Part shown: positions 940-11,587 of the stretch, one piece after another | How the letters are laid out: each line of letters begins with the position of its first letter | Numbering within the stretch: the first letter of the stretch is position 1 | Source: an uncultured virus (IMG/VR IMGVR_UViG_3300030328_002163) | Lineage: Duplodnaviria; Heunggongvirae; Uroviricota; Caudoviricetes; Crassvirales | Reading direction: 5' to 3' (one strand) | IMG/VR virus record: IMGVR_UViG_3300030328_002163 | DNA: 20,000 nucleotides | Position numbers and translations under genes: made by a program | The notes under the pieces: generated by a model | Told to the model about the DNA's origin: nothing | The model's input: the letters and a program-made list of their open reading frames with translations, nothing else | Databases searched by the model: none

Positions 940-2139
940 ATGAAGAAAATCACTGTTTTAGACCTTTTTTCAGGAATTGGGGGATTTCACCTCGGTTTTG
1001 AAAAAGCGGGATATGACGTTAAAACTTTCTTTTCTGAAGTCGATACTCATGCCATTGCAGTATATAAGTATAATTTTAAAAATAGTAAATATGTCGGATC
1101 AGTTACAGATGTTCGAGGAGAACAGTTACCAAAAATTGACGCTATCACCTTTGGAAGCCCTTGCCAAGACTTTAGTGTTGCTGGAAATCGTAAAGGGATG
1201 GGAGGAGATAGATCGAGCCTTATACTTGAAGCGATTAGACTCATCGATGAGTGCCGACCAGGAGTTTTTATCTGGGAAAATGTTAAAGGAACGTTCAGCT
1301 CAAACGATGGCGAAGACTTTGCGGCAATCCTCCAAGCCTTTACCAACATTGGGGGCTATAGACTTGAATGGCAATTGTGTAATACATCGTGGTTTCTACC
1401 CCAAAACAGAGAGAGAATCTACCTTGTCGGATATTCTACAGAACCCAAAGAAGATTGGAAAGGAGTTTTTCCTATCCAAAAAAATGACAAAGTTTCTCCT
1501 GGAGAGGGAGGGACCTTGGGGAAAGAATCTGGACATTCACGAACAATAACCGCTAGGTATTGGAAAATGGGATCTCATGATACCTATGTAAAGATGGCAG
1601 ATTATAGGAATGATGAGGGATTACGAGTAAGGGAAGATGATGAAAGCCCTTGTTTATCTGCACGAAGACACAGTGAAAAGGATGTAAGCACTATGCCACC
1701 ACTTGCAGTCTCTGGAGCATTAAGAACTTTTCCTAGGCAAAAACCTAAAGGTGAAGAGGATAATAGAAAAAAACAACTAGAAACTAGGAGTGATGATGTT
1801 TCTAATGCAGTTACCACCCACCCTTTTGATAGTGTCGTGGTCCCCACTCAATTAGGTAACTCAGAAAAATATGGTAATTCCGTTAAAGCTGAGGGGGATG
1901 ATGCTTTCACATTACGATCTTCAGAGCCCAATGGTATTATAGAAAACAAATCAATACGAAGACTTACACCTATAGAGTGTGAAAGGCTCCAAGGGTTTCC
2001 TGATAATTGGACCCAATATGGAATCTATGATGGTGAGACAAAAGAGGTGAGTAACACTCAAAGGTATAAGATGTGTGGTAATGCAGTAACGGTAGATGTA
2101 GTTGAAGCTGTGGTTAATCAATGCAAAGATATAATATGA
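940..2139 (+). CDS. DNA (cytosine-5)-methyltransferase, orphan, with a long variable region
   Basis: Motif I DLFSGIGG, IV FGSPCQDFS (catalytic PC), VI WENVKG, VIII QNRERIY, IX RRLTPIECERLQGFP and X YKMCGNAV are all present and in order. Confidence 0.96.
   Translation: MKKITVLDLFSGIGGFHLGFEKAGYDVKTFFSEVDTHAIAVYKYNFKNSKYVGSVTDVRGEQLPKIDAITFGSPCQDFSVAGNRKGMGGDRSSLILEAIRLIDECRPGVFIWENVKGTFSSNDGEDFAAILQAFTNIGGYRLEWQLCNTSWFLPQNRERIYLVGYSTEPKEDWKGVFPIQKNDKVSPGEGGTLGKESGHSRTITARYWKMGSHDTYVKMADYRNDEGLRVREDDESPCLSARRHSEKDVSTMPPLAVSGALRTFPRQKPKGEEDNRKKQLETRSDDVSNAVTTHPFDSVVVPTQLGNSEKYGNSVKAEGDDAFTLRSSEPNGIIENKSIRRLTPIECERLQGFPDNWTQYGIYDGETKEVSNTQRYKMCGNAVTVDVVEAVVNQCKDII
1091..1549 (+). CDS. Putative alternative-frame (+1) polypeptide nested in the MTase gene, similar to the M.EcoHK31I beta subunit (~152 aa from ATG 1091; frame open from at least 977)
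   Basis: A 190-codon same-strand stop-free frame in AT-rich DNA. ATG 1091 has the same AAAT-ATG context as other starts. It ends with ESTLSDILQ...KEFFLSKKMTKFLL, resembling the LxDILE...KYYLS segment of C5 MTases that is absent from the main frame. CG dinucleotides are visibly enriched over the overlap. Confidence 0.65.
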   Translation: MSDQLQMFEENSYQKLTLSPLEALAKTLVLLEIVKGWEEIDRALYLKRLDSSMSADQEFLSGKMLKERSAQTMAKTLRQSSKPLPTLGAIDLNGNCVIHRGFYPKTERESTLSDILQNPKKIGKEFFLSKKMTKFLLEREGPWGKNLDIHEQ

Positions 2140-3368
2140 AGCTAAGAGACTATCAATCTGATATAGTTAAAAAAGGAATAACAGTTCTTCAAAAGCATAG
2201 ATTTTTGTATCTTGCTATGGAGGTTAGGACTGGGAAAACCTTGACAAGTTTGGCTATGAGTCTTGCTCTTCCTATTCGTAACCTCTTATTTATAACAAAG
2301 AAAAAAGCAATTTCTAGTATTCAGTCAGACTATGATATGCTTAACCCTCCTTATAATATTACTATAATAAATTATGAAAGTCTACATAAGGTGTCTCATG
2401 AGACACAGTGGGATATGATAGTCTGTGATGAAGCACATTCTATGGGGGCATTTCCTAAGCCAAGCCTTAGAGCAAAGACAGTAAAAGAGTTTGTGTTAAA
2501 GCACAATCCTTTTGTTATTCTTTTATCAGGAACTCCTACCCCTGAGTCTTACTCACAAATGTATCACCAGGTTTATGGGATCAGAACAAATCCTTTTAGA
2601 CCTTATGTTAACTTTTACAAGTTTGCTAAACAATATGTGAAGGTTACCCAAAAAAAGATTGGAGCCTTAAGTATTAATGACTACAGTAATGGATTGCCAA
2701 CCATCTTAGATATAATGAAACCTTATACCTTAGCTTATTCTCAGAAAGAAGCAGGTTTTAAAGTGAGCACTGATGAGAAAGTGTTATATGTTCCTGTCTC
2801 ACCATTAATAAAAAAATTAGTAAGAAAATTAACTACTGATAGGGTGGTAGAAGGAGATCAGAATGTAATATTAGCCGATACAGCAGTTAAGTTAATGTCA
2901 AAATTGCATCAACTTTATTCAGGCACGGTAAAATTTGAAAGCGGAGAGTCTATGGTAATTGATTTAAGTAAAGCGGAGTTTATTAGAAAAGAGTTTAAAA
3001 ATAAAAAGATAGCTATTTTTTATAAGTTTAAAGAAGAACTAAATGCTCTAAAGAAAGTATATAGAAAATCTTTATGCACAGAATTGGAAGAGTTTAATAG
3101 CACTAACAAATGTATTGCATTACAGATAGTATCAGGTAGAGAAGGTATCAGTTTAAAGAATGCACAAGCATTAGTATATTATAATATAGACTTTAGTGCC
3201 ACGAGTTATTGGCAATCTAGAGATCGAATGACTACTAAGAATAGATTATATAACAAGATATATTGGGTGTTTAGTGAGGGAGGAATAGAAAATGATATAT
3301 ATAAAAGTGTGATTAAAAAGAAAGATTACACCCTTAATCACTTCAAAAAGGATTTACTAAATTTGTAA
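2136..3368 (+). CDS. Superfamily 2 (SNF2/DEAH-like) phage helicase
   Basis: Q-motif LRDYQ, Walker A MEVRTGKT, DEAH, motif III SGTP, motif V SGREGISL and motif VI QSRDR. ATG 2136 overlaps the MTase stop (ATGA) and is preferred over 2121. Confidence 0.88.
   Translation: MKLRDYQSDIVKKGITVLQKHRFLYLAMEVRTGKTLTSLAMSLALPIRNLLFITKKKAISSIQSDYDMLNPPYNITIINYESLHKVSHETQWDMIVCDEAHSMGAFPKPSLRAKTVKEFVLKHNPFVILLSGTPTPESYSQMYHQVYGIRTNPFRPYVNFYKFAKQYVKVTQKKIGALSINDYSNGLPTILDIMKPYTLAYSQKEAGFKVSTDEKVLYVPVSPLIKKLVRKLTTDRVVEGDQNVILADTAVKLMSKLHQLYSGTVKFESGESMVIDLSKAEFIRKEFKNKKIAIFYKFKEELNALKKVYRKSLCTELEEFNSTNKCIALQIVSGREGISLKNAQALVYYNIDFSATSYWQSRDRMTTKNRLYNKIYWVFSEGGIENDIYKSVIKKKDYTLNHFKKDLLNL
3358..3365 (+). promoter_or_regulatory. 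Possible Bacteroidota -7 promoter box TAAATTTG, 4 nt upstream of ATG 3370
   Basis: Matches TAnnTTTG, but no TTTG -33 box at the expected spacing. Confidence 0.35.
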
Positions 3369-3369
3369 T

Positions 3370-3591
3370 ATGAGGTTTATTAAGTTTACTCTTATATGGA
3401 TAAGCCAAAACTTAGCAATACCTTTTTGGGTGGTGGGACACATACATCTTTCTATTCATTCTTTTCATGACTTAATAGAAATTTGTTCATCATTAGGAAT
3501 GAATATTATTGTAGCAATAGGTTTTTATTTAGATTATAAATATGACAGAACAACAAATACAAAGCAAAAGAATAAAAGAGTTAGAGGCTGA
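3370..3591 (+). CDS. Small putative membrane protein (two hydrophobic segments, basic C-tail)
   Basis: Starts 1 nt after the helicase stop. Hydrophobic stretches are FTLIWISQNLAIPFWVVG and ICSSLGMNIIVAIGFYL. Confidence 0.65.
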   Translation: MRFIKFTLIWISQNLAIPFWVVGHIHLSIHSFHDLIEICSSLGMNIIVAIGFYLDYKYDRTTNTKQKNKRVRG

Positions 3592-3781
3592 TGGATATTA
3601 TGTAATTAAGTTAATTAAAACTAATAAGAATGGGATTCCTGATCTCCTGGCAATACCACCAAATAGTGATGTTTTATTTTCAGAGGTTAAGACTCCTAAA
3701 GGAAGAGTGTCAGCTTTACAAAAATATAGATTAAAAGAATTAAAAGACTATGGATATAAAACCGAGGTATATAAAGGATAG
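3542..3781 (+). CDS. VRR-NUC domain nuclease (PD-(D/E)xK; probable Holliday junction/branch resolvase)
   Basis: N-terminal MTEQQIQ, GIPDLL, FSEVK and GRVSALQ follow the single-domain phage VRR-NUC pattern. It lies close to the SF2 helicase. Confidence 0.88.
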   Translation: MTEQQIQSKRIKELEADGYYVIKLIKTNKNGIPDLLAIPPNSDVLFSEVKTPKGRVSALQKYRLKELKDYGYKTEVYKG

Positions 3782-4331: not shown

Positions 4332-4523
4332 ATGAACGATATATCTCAAGACGATGTGAATGCTATCAAGCATATTAACTATGTGACAAATAATTCACAC
4401 GATCTTATTACCGAGTTATATGAGGATTTAATGGAGAGAGATCATCAACAAGCCAAAATAAAAGCCCAAGAAATTTGTAAAGTTATGGCTGAACTTATTC
4501 AGTCTTTGTCTGATGAAGTTTAG
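4332..4523 (+). CDS. Hypothetical acidic helical protein (63 aa)
   Basis: Has its own promoter and an A-rich start context. The TAG stop overlaps the convergent gene's TAA. Confidence 0.7.
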   Translation: MNDISQDDVNAIKHINYVTNNSHDLITELYEDLMERDHQQAKIKAQEICKVMAELIQSLSDEV

Positions 4524-7500
4524 TTCTTTTTCTCTCTTTTTTCTTGTTCCTTCAACATCTTAATTATTTGTCTATATGCTGCTGGGGCATATTTTCGTAG
4601 GTTTTCTAGCTCTTCTTTTGAATAAGATATTCTTCCACCACTTTTTTTCTGAGCCTTTCTCTTGTCTGCAAAGAAATCATTAACTATCATTCTTCTTATG
4701 TCTTTATAAAATGGAAGTAAATTTAAGTTACCTGCTAATTCAACTGCCATTCTTTCAGTCAGTTCTCTTTCATAAAAGTCCCTAGTCTTTTTATCTTTAG
4801 CAGTAGTTAACCCTACTAGTACCTTTCTTAGTCGTTCACTTGATTGAAGAGCTGGACCATAAGGGCCGGCAAATAATTTAATAGCATTTTCAAATGAAGT
4901 TTTATTTTTAATGTCTTCTGCACCTATAAGATTAAACACCACTGAATGTTCAAACTGATCGTACTCTTCACCTCCTCTTAAGTCTTCACCAAATTCTTCA
5001 TTAGCTAACTCTATTGCTAATGAAATAGGATAGTTAGGTATATTACCCAATCCTCTTCTAAACATTAATGTAGCAATAGTTCCAACCAATTGTCTACCTA
5101 ATAAGTCCTCTAGTACAATATCTTCTTCTTCATCCTCCATGTCGAAGGCTTCATCGAACAATCCTCTAAGAACTGTATATAATGCCATATAAGCTGTCAT
5201 CCTACCTGTTATACCTAAAAGCAAACCTCCCGCTTGTACTCTACTTAAATCTCCATTATTATACATAGCGGTTATAGCTTTCTTAGCTGTAATAAATTCA
5301 AACAAATTAAATCTAGCCATATATCCATTAGCTAGTTTATATGCCCTCATCATTCCACTATCTTCTTTCTGAGTTTGTAGTTTTAAAATAGAATTAAAAG
5401 GATTTACTGATGTTGCCATTCTTACTATAGCTGCATCTGCCGCTATTCTAGCATTCTTAATAGCTTCTTTATTATTTAAATATTCAGAGTTACCTTCTCC
5501 TATATTAATAAGATCTTGTTCTGTAAGTTTTACCCCTGTTTCTTTTTCGAATGCATTCACAAACTCTGCAAAATACAAAGGTCTTGATATAGCTTTATCA
5601 GGATTAGAGATAAGATTTGATCCCATAAAATCAGTAAGTGCAGTCGCACCTTTTAATATTGGTAAATTATCATATATAAAATTAATCTTCTCAAGTATAG
5701 GTGGTATAGCTCTATCTTTAACAGATTTACCTTTTTTAAATACTGCTGCATCTACCATTTTGCCAGTCAAAGCAGTAGGATCATATAGTTTTAATGTTTC
5801 TGAACTACCTATATTTCGCATAAACATAGCGCCTTGAGGATTCATGGAGTACTTTCCAAACTTAGTCATACCTTGTATAAGGGCTTTTGGACTGGAAAGC
5901 AACCCAAATAATAAGTTAGAACCTAATTCCGCACCAGCTCTAGGTACAGAAGCTAGTGCAGCAAAGTATCCTATTCTTCTCATGTTATCGAATATTCTTT
6001 CACCGAAAGTAGTTTCTATAAAATTTCCTTCGAATACTATTCTTATATTTTCTTCAAGAGCTTTCTTTAAAGCCTCTACCGATTCTTTTTGTATGTCTGT
6101 AGCATTTGGATCATTATCAATTTCTTTCTGTACTTTGTCAACTGTTTTTAAAACTTGTCTAATAGGTCTAGTCATTTGATAGTCCATAATAGTTTGTCTC
6201 ATACCTCTTGATGTAGATGATATTATGTCAAAGTTTATAGGCTTTCCGCCAGGTGTTCTTTGTGTTAATGTACCAGCTTTAGTTGAACCAGTAGGGTTCA
6301 TAAATTTTTGTTTTTGTTCTAGTGTAGCCTTTGACATGTCCTCTTTACTTTCATATACTACATCATGATGTACATAGTAATTATATAAATCAACTCGATT
6401 ACCTCTTACATTTGCAGCAGTATATAAAGCTTTAGCCGCTAGTGACTCATTTACTTTATCTATTAACTCTAAGGCTTTTATCTCATTTTTACTTAAGGCT
6501 TTGTTTAATTTTTCATTATCTATCTGCCCTTCTTTGTTTGAAAATTCTTTTTTTAATTTTTTTAATATTTTAATATCTTCTTGAGCAAATGTTTTGTTAG
6601 ACTTTTCTAACATTTCTATTGTTTTGTCTACATAATCTATAGCAGGTTCAACCCCCTTTTTATCAGGATTAGCATTATATTCTCTTTGTAATGCATAAAT
6701 CATTAATCTGTACTTAGACTCAACTATACTATTAGTACCCTTTACTAGTTGTATTTTAGAATTTGGCTTACTTAATAAAACCTCTGCTTCTTCTAATAAT
6801 TTATCTGCTATACCAATATCAGTTTCGGCTTTGGAATACTCTGAAGCTAATATTAATGCAGTGGCTTTAGCTATGTCAGAATTATTATAGTTTCCTAAGA
6901 CCTCATCAATATTGCCCATATTGGTTGCTCTTATTTCTTGAAAAGTTCCTGATCCACCTCTCAACACAGACTTAACTTTACCATAAAACTTAGATAAGAA
7001 ATTGGTTATGTTGGTGCCTTTTACTTTTCTTTTAATAATGTTTGTAAACTTATTTCTATTAGCTATAATGTCATCCATTAAAGACACTGCGCTTTGGTCT
7101 ATAAAACCATTGTTGATGTTGTTTAATATTTTCTTTAAATTAACTAAAGTTGAATAATCATTGCTACCATCTTTCTTTACTTTCACTAATTGTTTTAAAT
7201 CTTCTTTAGTTAATGTTTTATAAAACTCTGCATCTTCAAATGCTATTTGTCCTTTAAGTGGAGATGTGTCTAATTTAATATTAAGAATATCATCTATCTC
7301 ATTATCTAAATTAAAATCTAATTCTAACTGAGTTGATTCTTCTAAATTTGTTTCTTCTTTTACTATAACAGAGTTGATTATATCATCTGCTGTCTTAAGC
7401 ATTTTACCTGATTCATCTAAAGTTAATACCTTAGCTCTTTCACCTATGATGTTTAATAAATCCATATAAGCATCTAGCTTTTCTAATGGTATAATCTTAG

Positions 7501-10500
7501 CATCATAACTAAGTAATTTCTGTAGAGATGGAAACAAATCTTTAGCACTTCCAATCTTACTCTTAATATTTCTTTTAGCTACTTTTCTTTTTTTGTTAGC
7601 TTGAACAATTGTATTGGCTAAATCAGCCTTCTCATAAATTTTAGTTATATAATCTTGTAATGCTTTAACTTGAGCTTCATCATTAAAATTAGTTCTTAAA
7701 GCTTTACTAATCATTACATTAGCTTGATTCTTAGTAATTACATTTTTATTTCCTAATCCTTTAATATATTTAACTACCTCTGCGGCTTTCTTTCTAAAAT
7801 CTCTTACAGCTTCCTTTGCACCTCTTTTTTCGCTTTTGACTATTTCTTTTAGTTTAGTAAGCTCAGAAGTCTTTTTCATATCAAAGCCTTTAGTTTTTAC
7901 ACCTTTACCTAACATAGCATCATATACTTTAACCATATTAGGTGTAAGTTTTTTCTCTATAGCCGAACCTTTAATGCCATTATATATATCAGTTAACCAA
8001 TCTTTAAACCTAGAGAAGATTCTTTCTAATCTACTATTTGGCGCTTTACCATCTGCTAAATATTTTTCAAATCCTCGAGCAAAGATTTCACTTACTTCTC
8101 TACTCCATCTTTTTTTACCTGCAAACTTTAATACAGTTTGTTTCTCTTCTTTAGTTAAATATTTCTCATATATATGAGCTAACTCATGTAATGGAGTAGA
8201 AACATCAGGGTTTGTCATAGCTATTATAACAAATTCACCATCTCTTGCAATCATCGCACCTCTAGCTGAAGCATCCATTTCTTGGAACAAAGGCCCTCCT
8301 GTTTCTGAGAAAGGATTTATCATGCTACCATTTTTTGTGAAAAAGTATTTCCCAGATCTTGCTTTCTTAATTCCATAGCCCAATTTTTCTGCTGCTTTTC
8401 TCAAAGCAAACTCATCAAGATTAGATGCCATGCTATACCCAGACTCATTAAAATTATAAAGTTGTGCTAATTTACCTATAGGACTTTTAGGTGATTGATA
8501 TAATTTCTTTTGTTCCTTAAGAGCTTTTATATCTTCATCAGTAGCTTTTACAAATTTTATTTTTTTGTACATTTCTTCTACAGAAATTCCTTCTCTTTTA
8601 GCCATAGATCGTATGGCTTTATCCATAACTGTAGCAGCTCCTAATGCTTGATCTCTATCAAGATTAAATACTTTTCGTTGTATATCATAAAGTTGTTTGA
8701 GATTATTAGCCACTTTACCAGGTAGAGGTTTTTTTGTTTTTTCTTCTGCTATTTGTTTTTTTCTTCTAGCTACAGATTTTGGATTAGCAATATTTTCAAA
8801 TCCTTCTATTGTTTCTGTAAGTTTTATAGTTCCAGGCTCAACTATATCAGTTTTTTCAATAAACTCCTCGTTAGTAAGGGTGTTATCTTTAGATACTTTA
8901 ATAGTGCTATAAACGTCTCCGTCTGCATTTTTATATCTAAAAGTTCTACTTCCGTCTTTAGCTGTAATAACTTCAACTGAAGAATTTTCATCTGGCTCAC
9001 CTTCTACACGCTCTCTTGTAAATGTGTGAGTTTCTTTTTTTACTGGATCTTTATCATTGATAGCTAAAGGATCTACTTCCTCTTCGGACTTCGTTTCCTC
9101 TTCACTGATAACTTCGGTTTCTTCTTTACCCTCTTGGGTAATGGTCCCTTCGGTGTCTCCTTTTCCCACCTCCGAGCCATCTGGGGATTGTTGGCGTGCA
9201 TCCACGCCCTCTGTGCTTCGCTTTTGAATGGCATCTTCTGTAATTTTAGTTATACTTTTATTTATTTCTTCTATCTTATTATCAATATCTTTAACTGTTC
9301 TAGGATCTTTATTTGCTTTCTTTTGCATTAAAGCTTGTTCCTCTACCATTAGGGATAGAATTTCTTTTTTAGACTGTGTATCGAGCTCTGGATTGATTTT
9401 CTTGCTTAGTCCAACTATCTGATCATAATTAGCTAGTATCTTTTCTCCTTCTTCTTTAGTTAACTTACCATCATTAATCATTTCTTTTATAGCTCCTACC
9501 TGTGCCTTTCTAATTTTTTTATAGTTCTTATCGTTTGATGTGTTTAAAAACAGCTCAAACAACTCATCATTCATTTCTTCTAGGTTATTTACCATAGGAT
9601 CAGTTCCTAATCCTTGATACATCATCATAGGTATAGACAATGTAATACCTCCAATACCTTCTTGTATACCAGCTTTGAGTACTTGTTTATAATATTCTTC
9701 ACTAAATGCTTCAGGTGTATCGAAGTTACCTTTATCTGAAGCTACATTCCATAATCTTTTAGCATTAATCTCGGCTATTTGTTGAAGAGCTCCTGTCTCT
9801 GCTTCGGCTAATCCCATAGAGCCAGCTCGTAAGGTGCCTTTCAATATTTTGTTTTTAACTTCTCTTTCTATAATTTCAGAAAAAGTTTTTGCAGAACTTT
9901 TTCCTGTGCCTTGTCCAAGTTTTTTTAATCCTTGTAAAGTCAATTGCTTAACAAATGGAGAAGATGCAGTCATGTTACGAAATCCATAAGCTTCTAGTAT
10001 ACCTGTAACTATACCTAATGGACCTGTTATTAAATACTTTTGAGATTCTGGTACTTCTGCAAAACTAGGATCTTTCTCCATTTCCTCATTAATTGCATCC
10101 ATTTGAAGTATTCCAAAGTTTAATACCCTACCACCAAAACCATAACTCATTAAAGCTGGTAAGCTTTCACCGACACCTAATACAGCCCCTCCCACAAGAG
10201 ATTCTCTTTGTACTCTATCAGCATATTCCCTAGTTGTTTTTGTTATAGGTCTTGATAATAAATCTGTTGCACCTACCCTTACAGAAGGTAGTACTTCTGC
10301 TTTTACAGATTTACTAGCTATATCTTTTACTTTAGAATTTAACTCAGATTTCTTTGATTTATCTATATTATTAACAATGTTTTGTAATTTATCTAGTGGT
10401 ATATCTCCATATTTAGCTTCTAAGTAAGCATTTCTTAATGCCATCTCAGCAGGTTTACCTTTTTTAAAACCTTGTATCTCTTCTACTTTCTCATCACTCA

Positions 10501-11587
10501 ATGATACTCTCCAACTGTCATAATCTAAATCTTTACTATCTAATCCTTCTACCTTTTCTCCACTATTTATTAGTTCTTCTATTATGTTTCGATTATAATC
10601 TTGTGGTGACATTCCAGCGTTAGGTAAAATGTTAACTAAAATATCTGTAGCAATTCCAGATTGCCCACTTGCTATTCTACCAACACCATCAAAAAATTTA
10701 TTTATAAAAGCTCCTACAAAAGTTCCTTTCTCTGCTTCTTTTTCTACATACCTTCCTACATTCTTTCTATAAGCAATCATGTCTTGTTGATTCTTGGTTT
10801 GCTTTTCGCTTATTTCATTTCTTTTTGTTTCTAGTTGTAAGTCTCTTTCTTTAAATTGCTCCAGTTGTTGTTGAGCTAATAAAGGGTTCGATTGTTTTAA
10901 ATCATTATATTCTTTAGAATAAAAATATTGTCTTTCCTTTTCTAATTCATTAAAGTCTCTTAAATATAATTTAAGCTCACTATTGAACCTGCTTTGATTG
11001 TTTTGAAAACTTTTTACATAGTTATCATACTCCTCTTCATCATAAAACTTGACCTCATTTTTATCATAGTTTTTTTCTATAGTAGATAAAGGATCAGTAG
11101 ACTGATTGTTTTTAATAAAATCTTGTATACCTTTTGGGTTTCTTTTATAGTTAGTAAATGTTTCTTCTACTCCTGTAGGGCTAGTAATTTTTATTGCATT
11201 AATACCAACACCTAATGGACTACTCCATTCTTCAAACTTAAAACCTTTGTTGCCGAATAAATAATTTAATTCTGGAACTGCATTCTCTTCACCTTGATTA
11301 AGGACTTCATCCGTTGCTAATAATTCCAAAGAACCATCTTCTGCCACTTGAGTTTCTGTAGTAGATACCGAAACGCTTTGAGGAGAAATGGAAGGAGAGT
11401 CTTTTTTTTTTACCCCAAAATCTTGGAGCATTTGTTCTATGGGAGGCATCTCGTAATGCTCTAGCATATTTTCCCTAAGCTTACCTATTTTAACAGGGTC
11501 TTGCATATCTATAGCAAACTGTTCATAAGCTGGTAGATCAAAATACTTTAAAGCATTTTCATACAGTCTTTTTAATTTTTCCTCCAT
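4520..11587 (-). CDS. Giant internal virion/ejection protein (large polyvalent protein-like) with a zincin-type metallopeptidase-like domain
   Basis: 2355-aa ORF, last in the virion block. Contains STPLHELAH (8174-8188) plus SEIFARGFEKYLADGKAP...FSRFKDWLTDIY, a pattern typical of MPTase-like domains in phage polyvalent proteins. Also has Gly/Ala-rich hydrophobic helices and coiled-coil stretches. Confidence 0.8.
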   Translation of the reverse strand: MEEKLKRLYENALKYFDLPAYEQFAIDMQDPVKIGKLRENMLEHYEMPPIEQMLQDFGVKKKDSPSISPQSVSVSTTETQVAEDGSLELLATDEVLNQGEENAVPELNYLFGNKGFKFEEWSSPLGVGINAIKITSPTGVEETFTNYKRNPKGIQDFIKNNQSTDPLSTIEKNYDKNEVKFYDEEEYDNYVKSFQNNQSRFNSELKLYLRDFNELEKERQYFYSKEYNDLKQSNPLLAQQQLEQFKERDLQLETKRNEISEKQTKNQQDMIAYRKNVGRYVEKEAEKGTFVGAFINKFFDGVGRIASGQSGIATDILVNILPNAGMSPQDYNRNIIEELINSGEKVEGLDSKDLDYDSWRVSLSDEKVEEIQGFKKGKPAEMALRNAYLEAKYGDIPLDKLQNIVNNIDKSKKSELNSKVKDIASKSVKAEVLPSVRVGATDLLSRPITKTTREYADRVQRESLVGGAVLGVGESLPALMSYGFGGRVLNFGILQMDAINEEMEKDPSFAEVPESQKYLITGPLGIVTGILEAYGFRNMTASSPFVKQLTLQGLKKLGQGTGKSSAKTFSEIIEREVKNKILKGTLRAGSMGLAEAETGALQQIAEINAKRLWNVASDKGNFDTPEAFSEEYYKQVLKAGIQEGIGGITLSIPMMMYQGLGTDPMVNNLEEMNDELFELFLNTSNDKNYKKIRKAQVGAIKEMINDGKLTKEEGEKILANYDQIVGLSKKINPELDTQSKKEILSLMVEEQALMQKKANKDPRTVKDIDNKIEEINKSITKITEDAIQKRSTEGVDARQQSPDGSEVGKGDTEGTITQEGKEETEVISEEETKSEEEVDPLAINDKDPVKKETHTFTRERVEGEPDENSSVEVITAKDGSRTFRYKNADGDVYSTIKVSKDNTLTNEEFIEKTDIVEPGTIKLTETIEGFENIANPKSVARRKKQIAEEKTKKPLPGKVANNLKQLYDIQRKVFNLDRDQALGAATVMDKAIRSMAKREGISVEEMYKKIKFVKATDEDIKALKEQKKLYQSPKSPIGKLAQLYNFNESGYSMASNLDEFALRKAAEKLGYGIKKARSGKYFFTKNGSMINPFSETGGPLFQEMDASARGAMIARDGEFVIIAMTNPDVSTPLHELAHIYEKYLTKEEKQTVLKFAGKKRWSREVSEIFARGFEKYLADGKAPNSRLERIFSRFKDWLTDIYNGIKGSAIEKKLTPNMVKVYDAMLGKGVKTKGFDMKKTSELTKLKEIVKSEKRGAKEAVRDFRKKAAEVVKYIKGLGNKNVITKNQANVMISKALRTNFNDEAQVKALQDYITKIYEKADLANTIVQANKKRKVAKRNIKSKIGSAKDLFPSLQKLLSYDAKIIPLEKLDAYMDLLNIIGERAKVLTLDESGKMLKTADDIINSVIVKEETNLEESTQLELDFNLDNEIDDILNIKLDTSPLKGQIAFEDAEFYKTLTKEDLKQLVKVKKDGSNDYSTLVNLKKILNNINNGFIDQSAVSLMDDIIANRNKFTNIIKRKVKGTNITNFLSKFYGKVKSVLRGGSGTFQEIRATNMGNIDEVLGNYNNSDIAKATALILASEYSKAETDIGIADKLLEEAEVLLSKPNSKIQLVKGTNSIVESKYRLMIYALQREYNANPDKKGVEPAIDYVDKTIEMLEKSNKTFAQEDIKILKKLKKEFSNKEGQIDNEKLNKALSKNEIKALELIDKVNESLAAKALYTAANVRGNRVDLYNYYVHHDVVYESKEDMSKATLEQKQKFMNPTGSTKAGTLTQRTPGGKPINFDIISSTSRGMRQTIMDYQMTRPIRQVLKTVDKVQKEIDNDPNATDIQKESVEALKKALEENIRIVFEGNFIETTFGERIFDNMRRIGYFAALASVPRAGAELGSNLLFGLLSSPKALIQGMTKFGKYSMNPQGAMFMRNIGSSETLKLYDPTALTGKMVDAAVFKKGKSVKDRAIPPILEKINFIYDNLPILKGATALTDFMGSNLISNPDKAISRPLYFAEFVNAFEKETGVKLTEQDLINIGEGNSEYLNNKEAIKNARIAADAAIVRMATSVNPFNSILKLQTQKEDSGMMRAYKLANGYMARFNLFEFITAKKAITAMYNNGDLSRVQAGGLLLGITGRMTAYMALYTVLRGLFDEAFDMEDEEEDIVLEDLLGRQLVGTIATLMFRRGLGNIPNYPISLAIELANEEFGEDLRGGEEYDQFEHSVVFNLIGAEDIKNKTSFENAIKLFAGPYGPALQSSERLRKVLVGLTTAKDKKTRDFYERELTERMAVELAGNLNLLPFYKDIRRMIVNDFFADKRKAQKKSGGRISYSKEELENLRKYAPAAYRQIIKMLKEQEKREKKN
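9073..9234 (-). CDS. Nested alternative-frame small basic protein, 53 aa: MPFKSEAQRAWMHANNPQMARRWEKETPKGPLPKRVKKKPKLSVKRKRSPKRK
   Basis: Hand translation from ATG 9234 to TAG 9075-9073, in the +1 frame relative to the host ORF. It coincides with a local GC/CpG-rich island and has an A-rich upstream region. It resembles small phage proteins beginning MPFKSxxQRxW (recalled, not searched). Confidence 0.7.
   Translation of the reverse strand: MPFKSEAQRAWMHANNPQMARRWEKETPKGPLPKRVKKKPKLSVKRKRSPKRK
11402..11411 (-). other. A10 homopolymer (GTA AAA AAA AAA GAC, codons 59-63): candidate slippage/frameshift site
   Basis: Run seen directly. Both shifted frames stay open for about 27-31 codons downstream. 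Confidence 0.5.

Follow-up and report, generated by a model that had tools for sequence, protein, structure and literature searches.

A small gene that encodes a very basic protein of 53 amino acids appears to lie, in a second reading frame, entirely within a giant virion-module gene of an uncultured virus of the Crassvirales (IMG/VR record IMGVR_UViG_3300030328_002163). The stretch of DNA that was analysed, 20,000 nucleotides in length and hereafter called the window, carries this small open reading frame (ORF) at positions 9073..9234 on the minus strand, and comparison with related sequences suggests, with a probability of about 0.8, that it is a genuine protein-coding gene. The initial annotation had proposed a real nested gene in this place, and this is borne out by the existence of free-standing homologues, by the retention of the start codon and of the frame in relatives of the giant gene, and by a coding signature in the +1 frame. 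The features concerned are the following:

4520..11587, minus strand: host gene, an ORF of 2355 amino acids, the last in a run of virion-module genes (phrog_32588, E = 4e-81).
9073..9234, minus strand: putative embedded small gene of the MPFKS family of small basic phage proteins, with an ATG, 53 codons and a TAG (translation and homologues).
9145..9234, minus strand: conserved N-terminal core of the small protein, residues 1-30 (alignment A1; AlphaFold2 helices at residues 6-15 and 17-26).
9076..9144, minus strand: Lys/Arg-rich tail of the small protein, residues 31-53 (family alignment and AlphaFold2 model).
9235..9274, minus strand: presumed internal initiation region, A-rich and without a Shine-Dalgarno (SD) motif (sequence, A fraction and RNA fold).
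9068..9235, minus strand: host-frame reading of the shared bases, an acidic low-complexity linker comprising host residues 785-840 (composition).

The small ORF is enclosed entirely by the giant one and is read in its +1 frame, since (11587-9234) mod 3 = 1. Its product contains 12 lysines and 7 arginines against three glutamates and no aspartate; with 53 residues, 19 of them basic, it shows the Lys/Arg-rich tail looked for in a protein of 40-70 amino acids. Read in the host frame, the same segment gives 18 Asp/Glu versus 6 Lys/Arg in 56 residues. The GC content of the nested segment is 0.512 and its observed/expected CpG ratio 0.79, compared with 0.314 and 0.33 in the remainder of the giant gene. 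ORF calling, translation and residue counts are therefore in agreement with what had been described from the letters of the window, namely the ORF itself with its sequence and +1 frame, the excess of 19 basic over three acidic residues, the GC- and CpG-rich island coinciding with the ORF, and the acidic low-complexity linker of the main frame.

Homology, and not length, is decisive for regarding this ORF as a real gene rather than a chance one. By phmmer, 41 of 44 candidate small proteins match the window peptide at E <= 0.01 (range 3.9e-13 to 1.6e-4; 5.8 billion sequences); the matching proteins are metagenomic, 38-74 amino acids long and 54-85% identical to the window peptide. The initial annotation had pointed to free-standing phage proteins beginning with MPFKSxxQRxWM and had proposed a homology search in viral protein sets; proteins of the form MPFKS..QR..M are indeed found, and among the homologues are stand-alone ones, the best of all matches being that at E = 3.9e-13. 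In the family alignment (A1), residues M1, P2, K4, S5, Q8, R9, P17 and A20 are invariant and 14 more columns are at least 90% conserved, all of them within residues 1-33. All eight invariant residues are present in the window peptide, and a W-E-x-E-T-P-K-G stretch is among the family features. The Lys/Arg tail, located C-terminal to this core, is variable in length and sequence across the family. AlphaFold2, run with A1, predicts two short helices (residues 6-15 and 17-26) followed by a tail without secondary structure, with a mean pLDDT (predicted local distance difference test) of 77.5.

The family is large. When the A1 profile is compared with 1.84 billion representatives, 4102 of them match at E <= 1e-3 and 837 at E <= 1e-10, mostly as free-standing proteins or as N-termini of longer proteins; among the 150 matches listed, which range from 46 to 761 amino acids, the motif starts almost always at residue 1. 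In viral contigs, 427 of 596 pattern stretches encode family relatives, and the family is found in 10-12 records of cultured isolates, mostly Streptomyces phages. For instance, gene 48 of Streptomyces phage FlowerPower encodes a free-standing hypothetical protein of 72 amino acids whose Met is aligned with that of the window peptide, with 59% identity over residues 1-27. In Phage C75C1 (GenBank OQ984151; L002:2998-3105, plus strand), a family member of 35 amino acids lies between two annotated coding sequences and is itself unannotated in the record. A longer variant of the family, with an insert between the conserved halves, is present in loci L146-L172 from metagenome-assembled genomes (MAGs), some of them in chromosome-sized contigs; this variant scores 19-38 bits with the A1 profile and has only weak SHOCT matches in Pfam.

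The nesting itself is conserved among giant genes. In viral contigs, embedding was counted over the best 80 of the 427 family-encoding loci, plus L003 and the window (loci are cited by number only where they have to be told apart). In 16 of the 80, the small ORF lies within a same-strand ORF of 1261-3138 codons; together with the window and L003, this gives 18 giant-hosted copies, all 18 in the +1 frame, at host codons 583-1094. The giants are homologous on both flanks of the segment, yet they are distant, with an identity of only ~25-35%. In L003, for example, whose giant is ~29-32% identical to that of the window, host codon 796 marks the position of a divergent family member, likewise in the +1 frame. 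The nested products are 45-98 amino acids long, their tails and stops varying freely. Among metagenome relatives, L089 is identical to the window, L090 is 94% identical, and L091 and L092, which are equal to each other, are 54% identical; the ORF is intact in the four loci, with 53 amino acids in L089 and L090 and 51 in L091 and L092. For MAG contigs, the best 80 of 123 hits were taken and the tally is given over 78, of which 12 lie in host-type frames of 1010-2898 codons with the same +1 relation; where the other alternative frame spans the small ORF in these hits, its length never exceeds 164 codons. Every giant relative holding the segment has retained the ATG, an open +1 frame and the conserved residues; this applies to all 18 giant-hosted copies, to three further distinct relatives and to the 12 MAG copies, as expected from the proposal that start codon and frame would persist in giant homologues. 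The window ORF is an embedded out-of-frame ORF: the whole of it lies in a longer same-strand ORF, and it is kept in relatives. Such nested copies escape gene finders and are invisible to annotation; six of six checked nested peptides are missing from a collection of 15 billion proteins.

The alternative that survives best is that the segment is an untranslated relic of a captured small gene, conserved on account of the host-frame linker or of the nucleic acid as such (an RNA structure or a DNA site). In this sense, the host-frame segments (n = 27) show a recurrent acidic pattern in which A12 never varies and the conservation of Q14 and V21 reaches at least 90%, and the predicted RNA fold here is somewhat better than that of shuffled sequences (z = -2.83). 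Nevertheless, the way in which the segment varies makes such a relic quite improbable. Codons 2-29 were compared position by position in 17 unique giant-hosted copies, in 8 copies of a second host class (see below) and in 49 other copies, free-standing or ambiguous. Pairwise differences at nested positions 1, 2 and 3 amount to 0.330, 0.226 and 0.444 in the giant-hosted copies, to 0.240, 0.203 and 0.364 in the second class, and to 0.321, 0.210 and 0.588 in the others. This order of variability matches the nested frame, which therefore carries the coding signature; over the segment, variability is lowest at host position 3 and highest at host position 1. The nested third position is damped where the second frame is read. 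Changes at single sites that are silent for the nested frame but replace an amino acid of the host frame outnumber the reverse class by 1336 to 629; when the window is compared with L090, silent codons number 7 in the nested frame and 0 in the host frame, and replaced codons 6 and 11, respectively. A relic is also difficult to reconcile with an ATG and an intact ORF in all the giant-hosted copies counted above, given the low identity of their hosts, with the enrichment of SD-like motifs ahead of the internal ATG, and with the fact that the host linker is dispensable, being missing in L088.

Further signatures of dual coding are found in the host frame. It had been proposed that synonymous variation of the main frame would be suppressed over the nested gene, which holds for most of the pairs compared and fails in one of them (given below with the other counter-evidence). 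Host third-position differences over the first 30 shared codons were ranked against gene-wide windows in nine pairs. Between the DNA studied here and L010 these differences are 0.167 versus 0.568 gene-wide (rank 7 of 2028 windows); the rank is 2 of 1808 for L012 versus L063 and 10 of 2099 for L010 versus L025, and L006 and L010 have zero host third-position differences over the shared codons. In the 49 unique free-standing or ambiguous copies, the host-type frame contains a mean of 4.65 stops and is open in three, while the other alternative frame contains a mean of 1.41 stops and is open in 12. Since the host-type frame is the least open one in free copies, the frame used in every embedding must be cleared of stops, and it is only in nested copies that such stops have been purged. 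At codon 3, all 26 of the 26 nested copies have TTC, while elsewhere this codon is TTT in 32, TTC in 22, CTC in two and TAC in one; TTC is forced in nested copies because TTT with AAR after it would create a TAA stop in the host frame. The local rise in GC is specific to nested copies in low-GC phages, with little or none in free-standing copies of equally AT-rich phages, and is best read as a cost of dual coding and not as a sign of foreign DNA.

With regard to initiation, SD-like 4-mers are present at -16..-7 of the internal ATG in 7 of 17 giant-hosted relatives, against 1.74 expected from the same genes (P about 8.5e-4), and SD-like 5-mers in 5 of 17 against 0.35 expected. The 17 loci were obtained by dropping L011, a near-duplicate, and the clearest examples are L021 and L040. 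In the window, the fraction of A is 0.55 in the last 20 nucleotides before the internal ATG versus 0.41 gene-wide, and this A-rich stretch is mostly unpaired in the predicted RNA fold; the other low-GC loci have an A-rich stretch as well. In these loci initiation is probably SD-independent. According to the mechanism that we propose, the late structural mRNA would be read twice. Ribosomes coming from the start of the giant gene would stay in frame 0 across the segment, which would give an acidic and probably disordered linker, and others would initiate at the internal ATG and translate 53 codons of the +1 frame. The internal ATG would be served by the A-rich unstructured stretch in the low-GC lineage and by SD-like motifs in higher-GC relatives. 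The comparative data suggest in this way that the small gene is translated.

It is important to note that several observations weigh against a translated nested gene. The evidence for the gene comes from sequence comparison, a point that also counts for the untranslated relic. The window and other low-GC loci lack an SD-like motif upstream of the internal ATG, and no sigma-70-like promoter or terminator was detected nearby on the minus strand. The SD and codon counts are drawn from related sequences, so that their P values overstate independence. Suppression of host third-position differences is absent in L021 versus L032 (rank 1314 of 2482), perhaps as a result of misalignment, and reaches moderate ranks only in the close pairs L010 versus L011 and L025 versus L037. 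No cultured phage with the nested form was found by blastn of the region, which gave no match, by tblastn of the giant protein, or among isolate records. Finally, between the window and L090, 17 of 162 nucleotides are changed in the segment versus 12 of 900 in the upstream flank.

The amino-acid changes between the window and L090 are at family-variable positions, and the divergent patch may be due either to recombination that brought in another allele or to a fast evolution of the region. Seen along the DNA, the comparison with L090 shows a mosaic patch at 8700-9234 of the window (minus strand), which consists of the embedded gene and ~370 nucleotides downstream, between nearly identical flanks.

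A further alternative is that no independent gene exists and that the +1 frame is reached by programmed frameshifting. A shift from the giant frame would give a truncated N-terminal part with a basic tail; alternatively, initiation at the internal ATG followed by a -1 slip would place MPFKS on the C-terminal 1500 residues of the giant protein. Two facts are compatible with this idea: MPFKS is elsewhere the in-frame N-terminus of long proteins (L007, 1152 amino acids; L074, 449+ amino acids; others up to 761 amino acids), and a single frame relation is used in all embeddings. However, the window has no in-phase -1 slippery heptamer, and such heptamers are present in only two of the 18 giant-hosted copies and three of the eight copies of the second class (class-B), compared with 16 of 53 free copies. 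A programmed -1 frameshift product was consequently rejected, as no in-phase slippery heptamer is conserved. Moreover, the Met-Pro-Phe-Lys-Ser start is kept exactly as in free-standing genes, and the free variation of tails and stop positions (45-98 amino acids) is hardly that of a frameshift product, so that this explanation seems very unlikely. As for a chance ORF in a GC-richer patch of the giant gene, its length is certainly unremarkable (the longest run without a stop in the gene's two alternative sense frames has 58 codons, and other open stretches there reach 55 and 53 codons), but the idea is already refuted by the homology found among 5.8e9 sequences and by the same ORF, in the same place and frame, in distant homologues, and its probability is negligible.

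The embedded small gene is found in other hosts as well. In eight viral loci, the ORF lies in the +1 frame, 40-70 codons into an acidic protein of ~400 amino acids, whose gene has a portal gene (phrog_6547) on one side and a virion structural gene (phrog_13704) on the other, the position of a scaffolding gene; four more loci with this host are present in the MAG set. The ~400-amino-acid host was not retrieved by BLAST with the flanks of the giants as queries at E <= 1e-5, and is by this comparison unrelated to the giant host. Partial overlaps are also observed. In L014:1700-2174, L027:5709-6162 and L029:5718-6162, the small gene shares bases with the final 30-40 codons of an upstream gene of ~130 amino acids, and in L018:267-912 it overlaps the 3' end of an upstream gene of 212 amino acids. 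These upstream genes have no PHROG match, and the frame relation is the same in all four; because it is identical, the upstream proteins end in the same acidic motif. Four loci (L008, L016, L048 and L079) are ambiguous, and in L008 the terminase homology of the host ORF begins only past the end of the small ORF. The opposite-strand frames that contain the ORF in L018, L019, L042, L053, L055 and L056 are probably spurious.

The origin of the overlap can be approached through giant relatives that lack the nested copy. In L087 (2642 amino acids) and L088 (2861 amino acids), the small gene is located 12-13 nucleotides past the stop of the giant gene. Compared with its nearest nested relative, L088 has a clean gap of ~54 amino acids exactly at the shared segment, its small gene following 13 nucleotides after the stop, and L087 has in the same position an unrelated linker full of +1 stops. 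Because of the gap in L088 and of the free copies in both, the segment behaves like a discrete cassette that has entered or left the giant gene. In a tree of 85 N-terminal cores (39 columns), the free copy of L017 clusters with nested copies of related giants (SH-aLRT, the Shimodaira-Hasegawa-like approximate likelihood ratio test, 84); the tree is otherwise without resolution and is compatible with a single or a multiple origin of nesting. Since the family extends far beyond these hosts, the small gene is the older partner and the acidic linker the newer one. The initial annotation, which described a gene overprinted in the giant one, was therefore right about the nesting but not about its direction, as the small gene, with its 4102 representatives, is ancient and the linker of the giant is derived. 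The small gene would have entered the giant gene, through engulfment or insertion, at a linker that tolerates change, and would afterwards have become adapted to dual coding; overprinting can in this way run from a large gene onto a small old one.

A more speculative and rather unlikely extension of this origin is that the shared bases are a mobile two-frame cassette, in which the basic protein docks on the acidic segment encoded by its own DNA and acts as a self-addressed adaptor for the loading of cargo into the capsid. The +1 register is shared by at least four unrelated hosts (the giants, the ~400-amino-acid protein, the ~130-amino-acid protein of L014, L027 and L029, and the 212-amino-acid protein of L018). 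The small protein would be, according to this idea, a general head-targeting or DNA-tethering module, and the same N-terminus would therefore be fused to MuF, InPase, cupin and ferritin-like cargo. A complex prediction with the host-frame segment (A2) and the peptide (A1) gave a score of 0.00 in two runs, which speaks neither for nor against binding.

The function of the product can be proposed only tentatively: it may be a basic protein for head assembly or one carried inside the virion, a role suggested by its gene neighbours and by the domains fused to it. Neighbours were scanned for 35 free-standing loci, 21 of which have an annotated neighbour. In 14 of these 21, the small gene follows the portal gene or tail-fibre genes, or is located between the genes for the large terminase and the portal. 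As an N-terminal module, MPFKS is fused to Phage_Mu_F (E = 1.2e-11), to InPase with glycine zippers (3.7e-45), to Cupin_2, to DUF5661 and to EncFtn-like domains; weaker matches are to DnaJ, AAA and ParB-like domains, and most of the 44 long forms are without a known domain. InPase and MuF domains have been tied to virion packaging and injection (PMC5512222). In this proposal, the partner of the basic tail would be nucleic acid, and that of the helical core a conserved component of the virion or of packaging. The initial annotation had suggested protamine-like DNA condensation or a chaperone of the ejected protein; either may apply, and what bears on a DNA-binding role is the composition (19 Lys/Arg in 53 residues) and the gene context. 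The evidence on the other side is that 7 of the 21 loci adjoin non-structural genes (ribonucleotide reductase, GroEL/GroES, nucleases) and that searches for known relatives were negative: Pfam has no significant match for the peptide or for 42 family members, with weak chance matches only (E = 0.035 or above); NCBIfam has no match for the peptide or the family; Foldseek of the AlphaFold2 model against the PDB gives nothing at E <= 0.001; and a PDB sequence search with the peptide gives one chance-like match of 13 residues (E = 0.1). Among PHROGs, the window peptide matches phrog_1375 alone, a group without an assigned function, and weakly (E = 0.0017). In the ESM Atlas, the peptide falls among viral hypothetical clusters without a Pfam family. 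DUF3008 (PF11450) was considered and rejected, as no Pfam match to it appears at E <= 1 in 42 family members or in nine longer variants; its only link is a feature lead of 0.82 in the ESM Atlas, under the 0.9 mark. Free-standing members adjoin phage GroEL-like or GroES-like genes in L068:892-2472 and L050:532-996, and one long form has a weak DnaJ match, which hints at a possible link of the MPFKS family with chaperones.

Embedded out-of-frame genes are rare in tailed phages, the usual example being Rz/Rz1, and spanin genes occur in embedded, overlapping and separate arrangements. In lambda, Rz1 is embedded in the +1 frame of Rz, and the sensitive parts of one lie over silent parts of the other, as described in PMC5295617. 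The MPFKS gene resembles this pair in that a small gene lies wholly inside the +1 frame of a larger phage gene, in that the part of one partner under constraint coincides with a linker of the other that tolerates change, and in that embedded, overlapping and separate forms occur in related phages. It differs from Rz1 in that the peptide has no sequence relation to it, no Cys or lipobox and no lipoprotein or hydrophobic signal, and identity as an o-spanin was rejected on the last two grounds. Unlike Rz, which is a lysis gene, the hosts are a giant virion-module protein or a gene in the scaffold position; unlike Rz1, MPFKS is an ancient and widespread family that is also free-standing in thousands of phages. 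The window copy shares the N-terminal core and the basic tail with free-standing members such as FlowerPower gp48, and differs from the called free-standing genes in being embedded and uncalled. Basic proteins of the head interior or core include the internal proteins of T4, T7 gp6.7, adenovirus protein VII and the protamines. The MPFKS protein may be likened to them in its small size, its strongly basic character and the position of its gene among late or virion genes, whereas no sequence or fold relation to them was found by PDB sequence search or Foldseek.

A full-text search for 'MPFKS', together with topical searches at the level of abstracts, returned no report of the family or of its embedding. 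The case described here would be a second embedded gene, unrelated to Rz/Rz1, for which the comparison of relatives speaks unusually strongly: in dozens of uncultured phages, giant virion genes, and also a second gene unrelated to them, have retained an ancient small gene within their sequence. The forced TTC codon, the purged host-frame stops and the local GC rise are signatures that can be used for finding more nested genes. In addition, a large nameless family, with 4102 representative clusters, becomes a concrete candidate for a packaging or head-internal function, because its members lie beside terminase, portal, scaffold-position and giant virion genes and because it serves as an N-terminal module on varied cargo.

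The giant host gene closes a run that includes phrog_14478 and phrog_13764 (virion structural proteins) and phrog_12032 (tail fibre). Its product has one weak match in a PDB sequence search, and tblastn against cultured phages gives a single, domain-level match. Polyvalent proteins (Iyer et al., 2017; PMC5512222) offer a possible parallel, since the giant host is likewise multidomain and encoded among virion genes, its homologue in L003 carries ART-PolyVal (PF18760; E = 2.5e-9, 38.5 bits versus a cut-off of 31.2), and MPFKS is fused to InPase and MuF domains. The giant of the window itself passes no threshold for a polyvalent domain in Pfam, LPD1 being found at E = 0.16. In the main text of PMC5512222, the word 'overlapping' does not occur. 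The giant protein also contains an HExxH motif, in a region (7808-8350 of the window, minus strand) that shares 55% identity with a hypothetical protein of Leptolyngbya phage Lbo-JY46 and that may be a candidate metallopeptidase of the polyvalent type. Elsewhere in the window, a divergently oriented module at 940-3781 (plus strand) comprises a DNA methyltransferase (phrog_116), a helicase (phrog_62) and a small endonuclease-like ORF (phrog_93).

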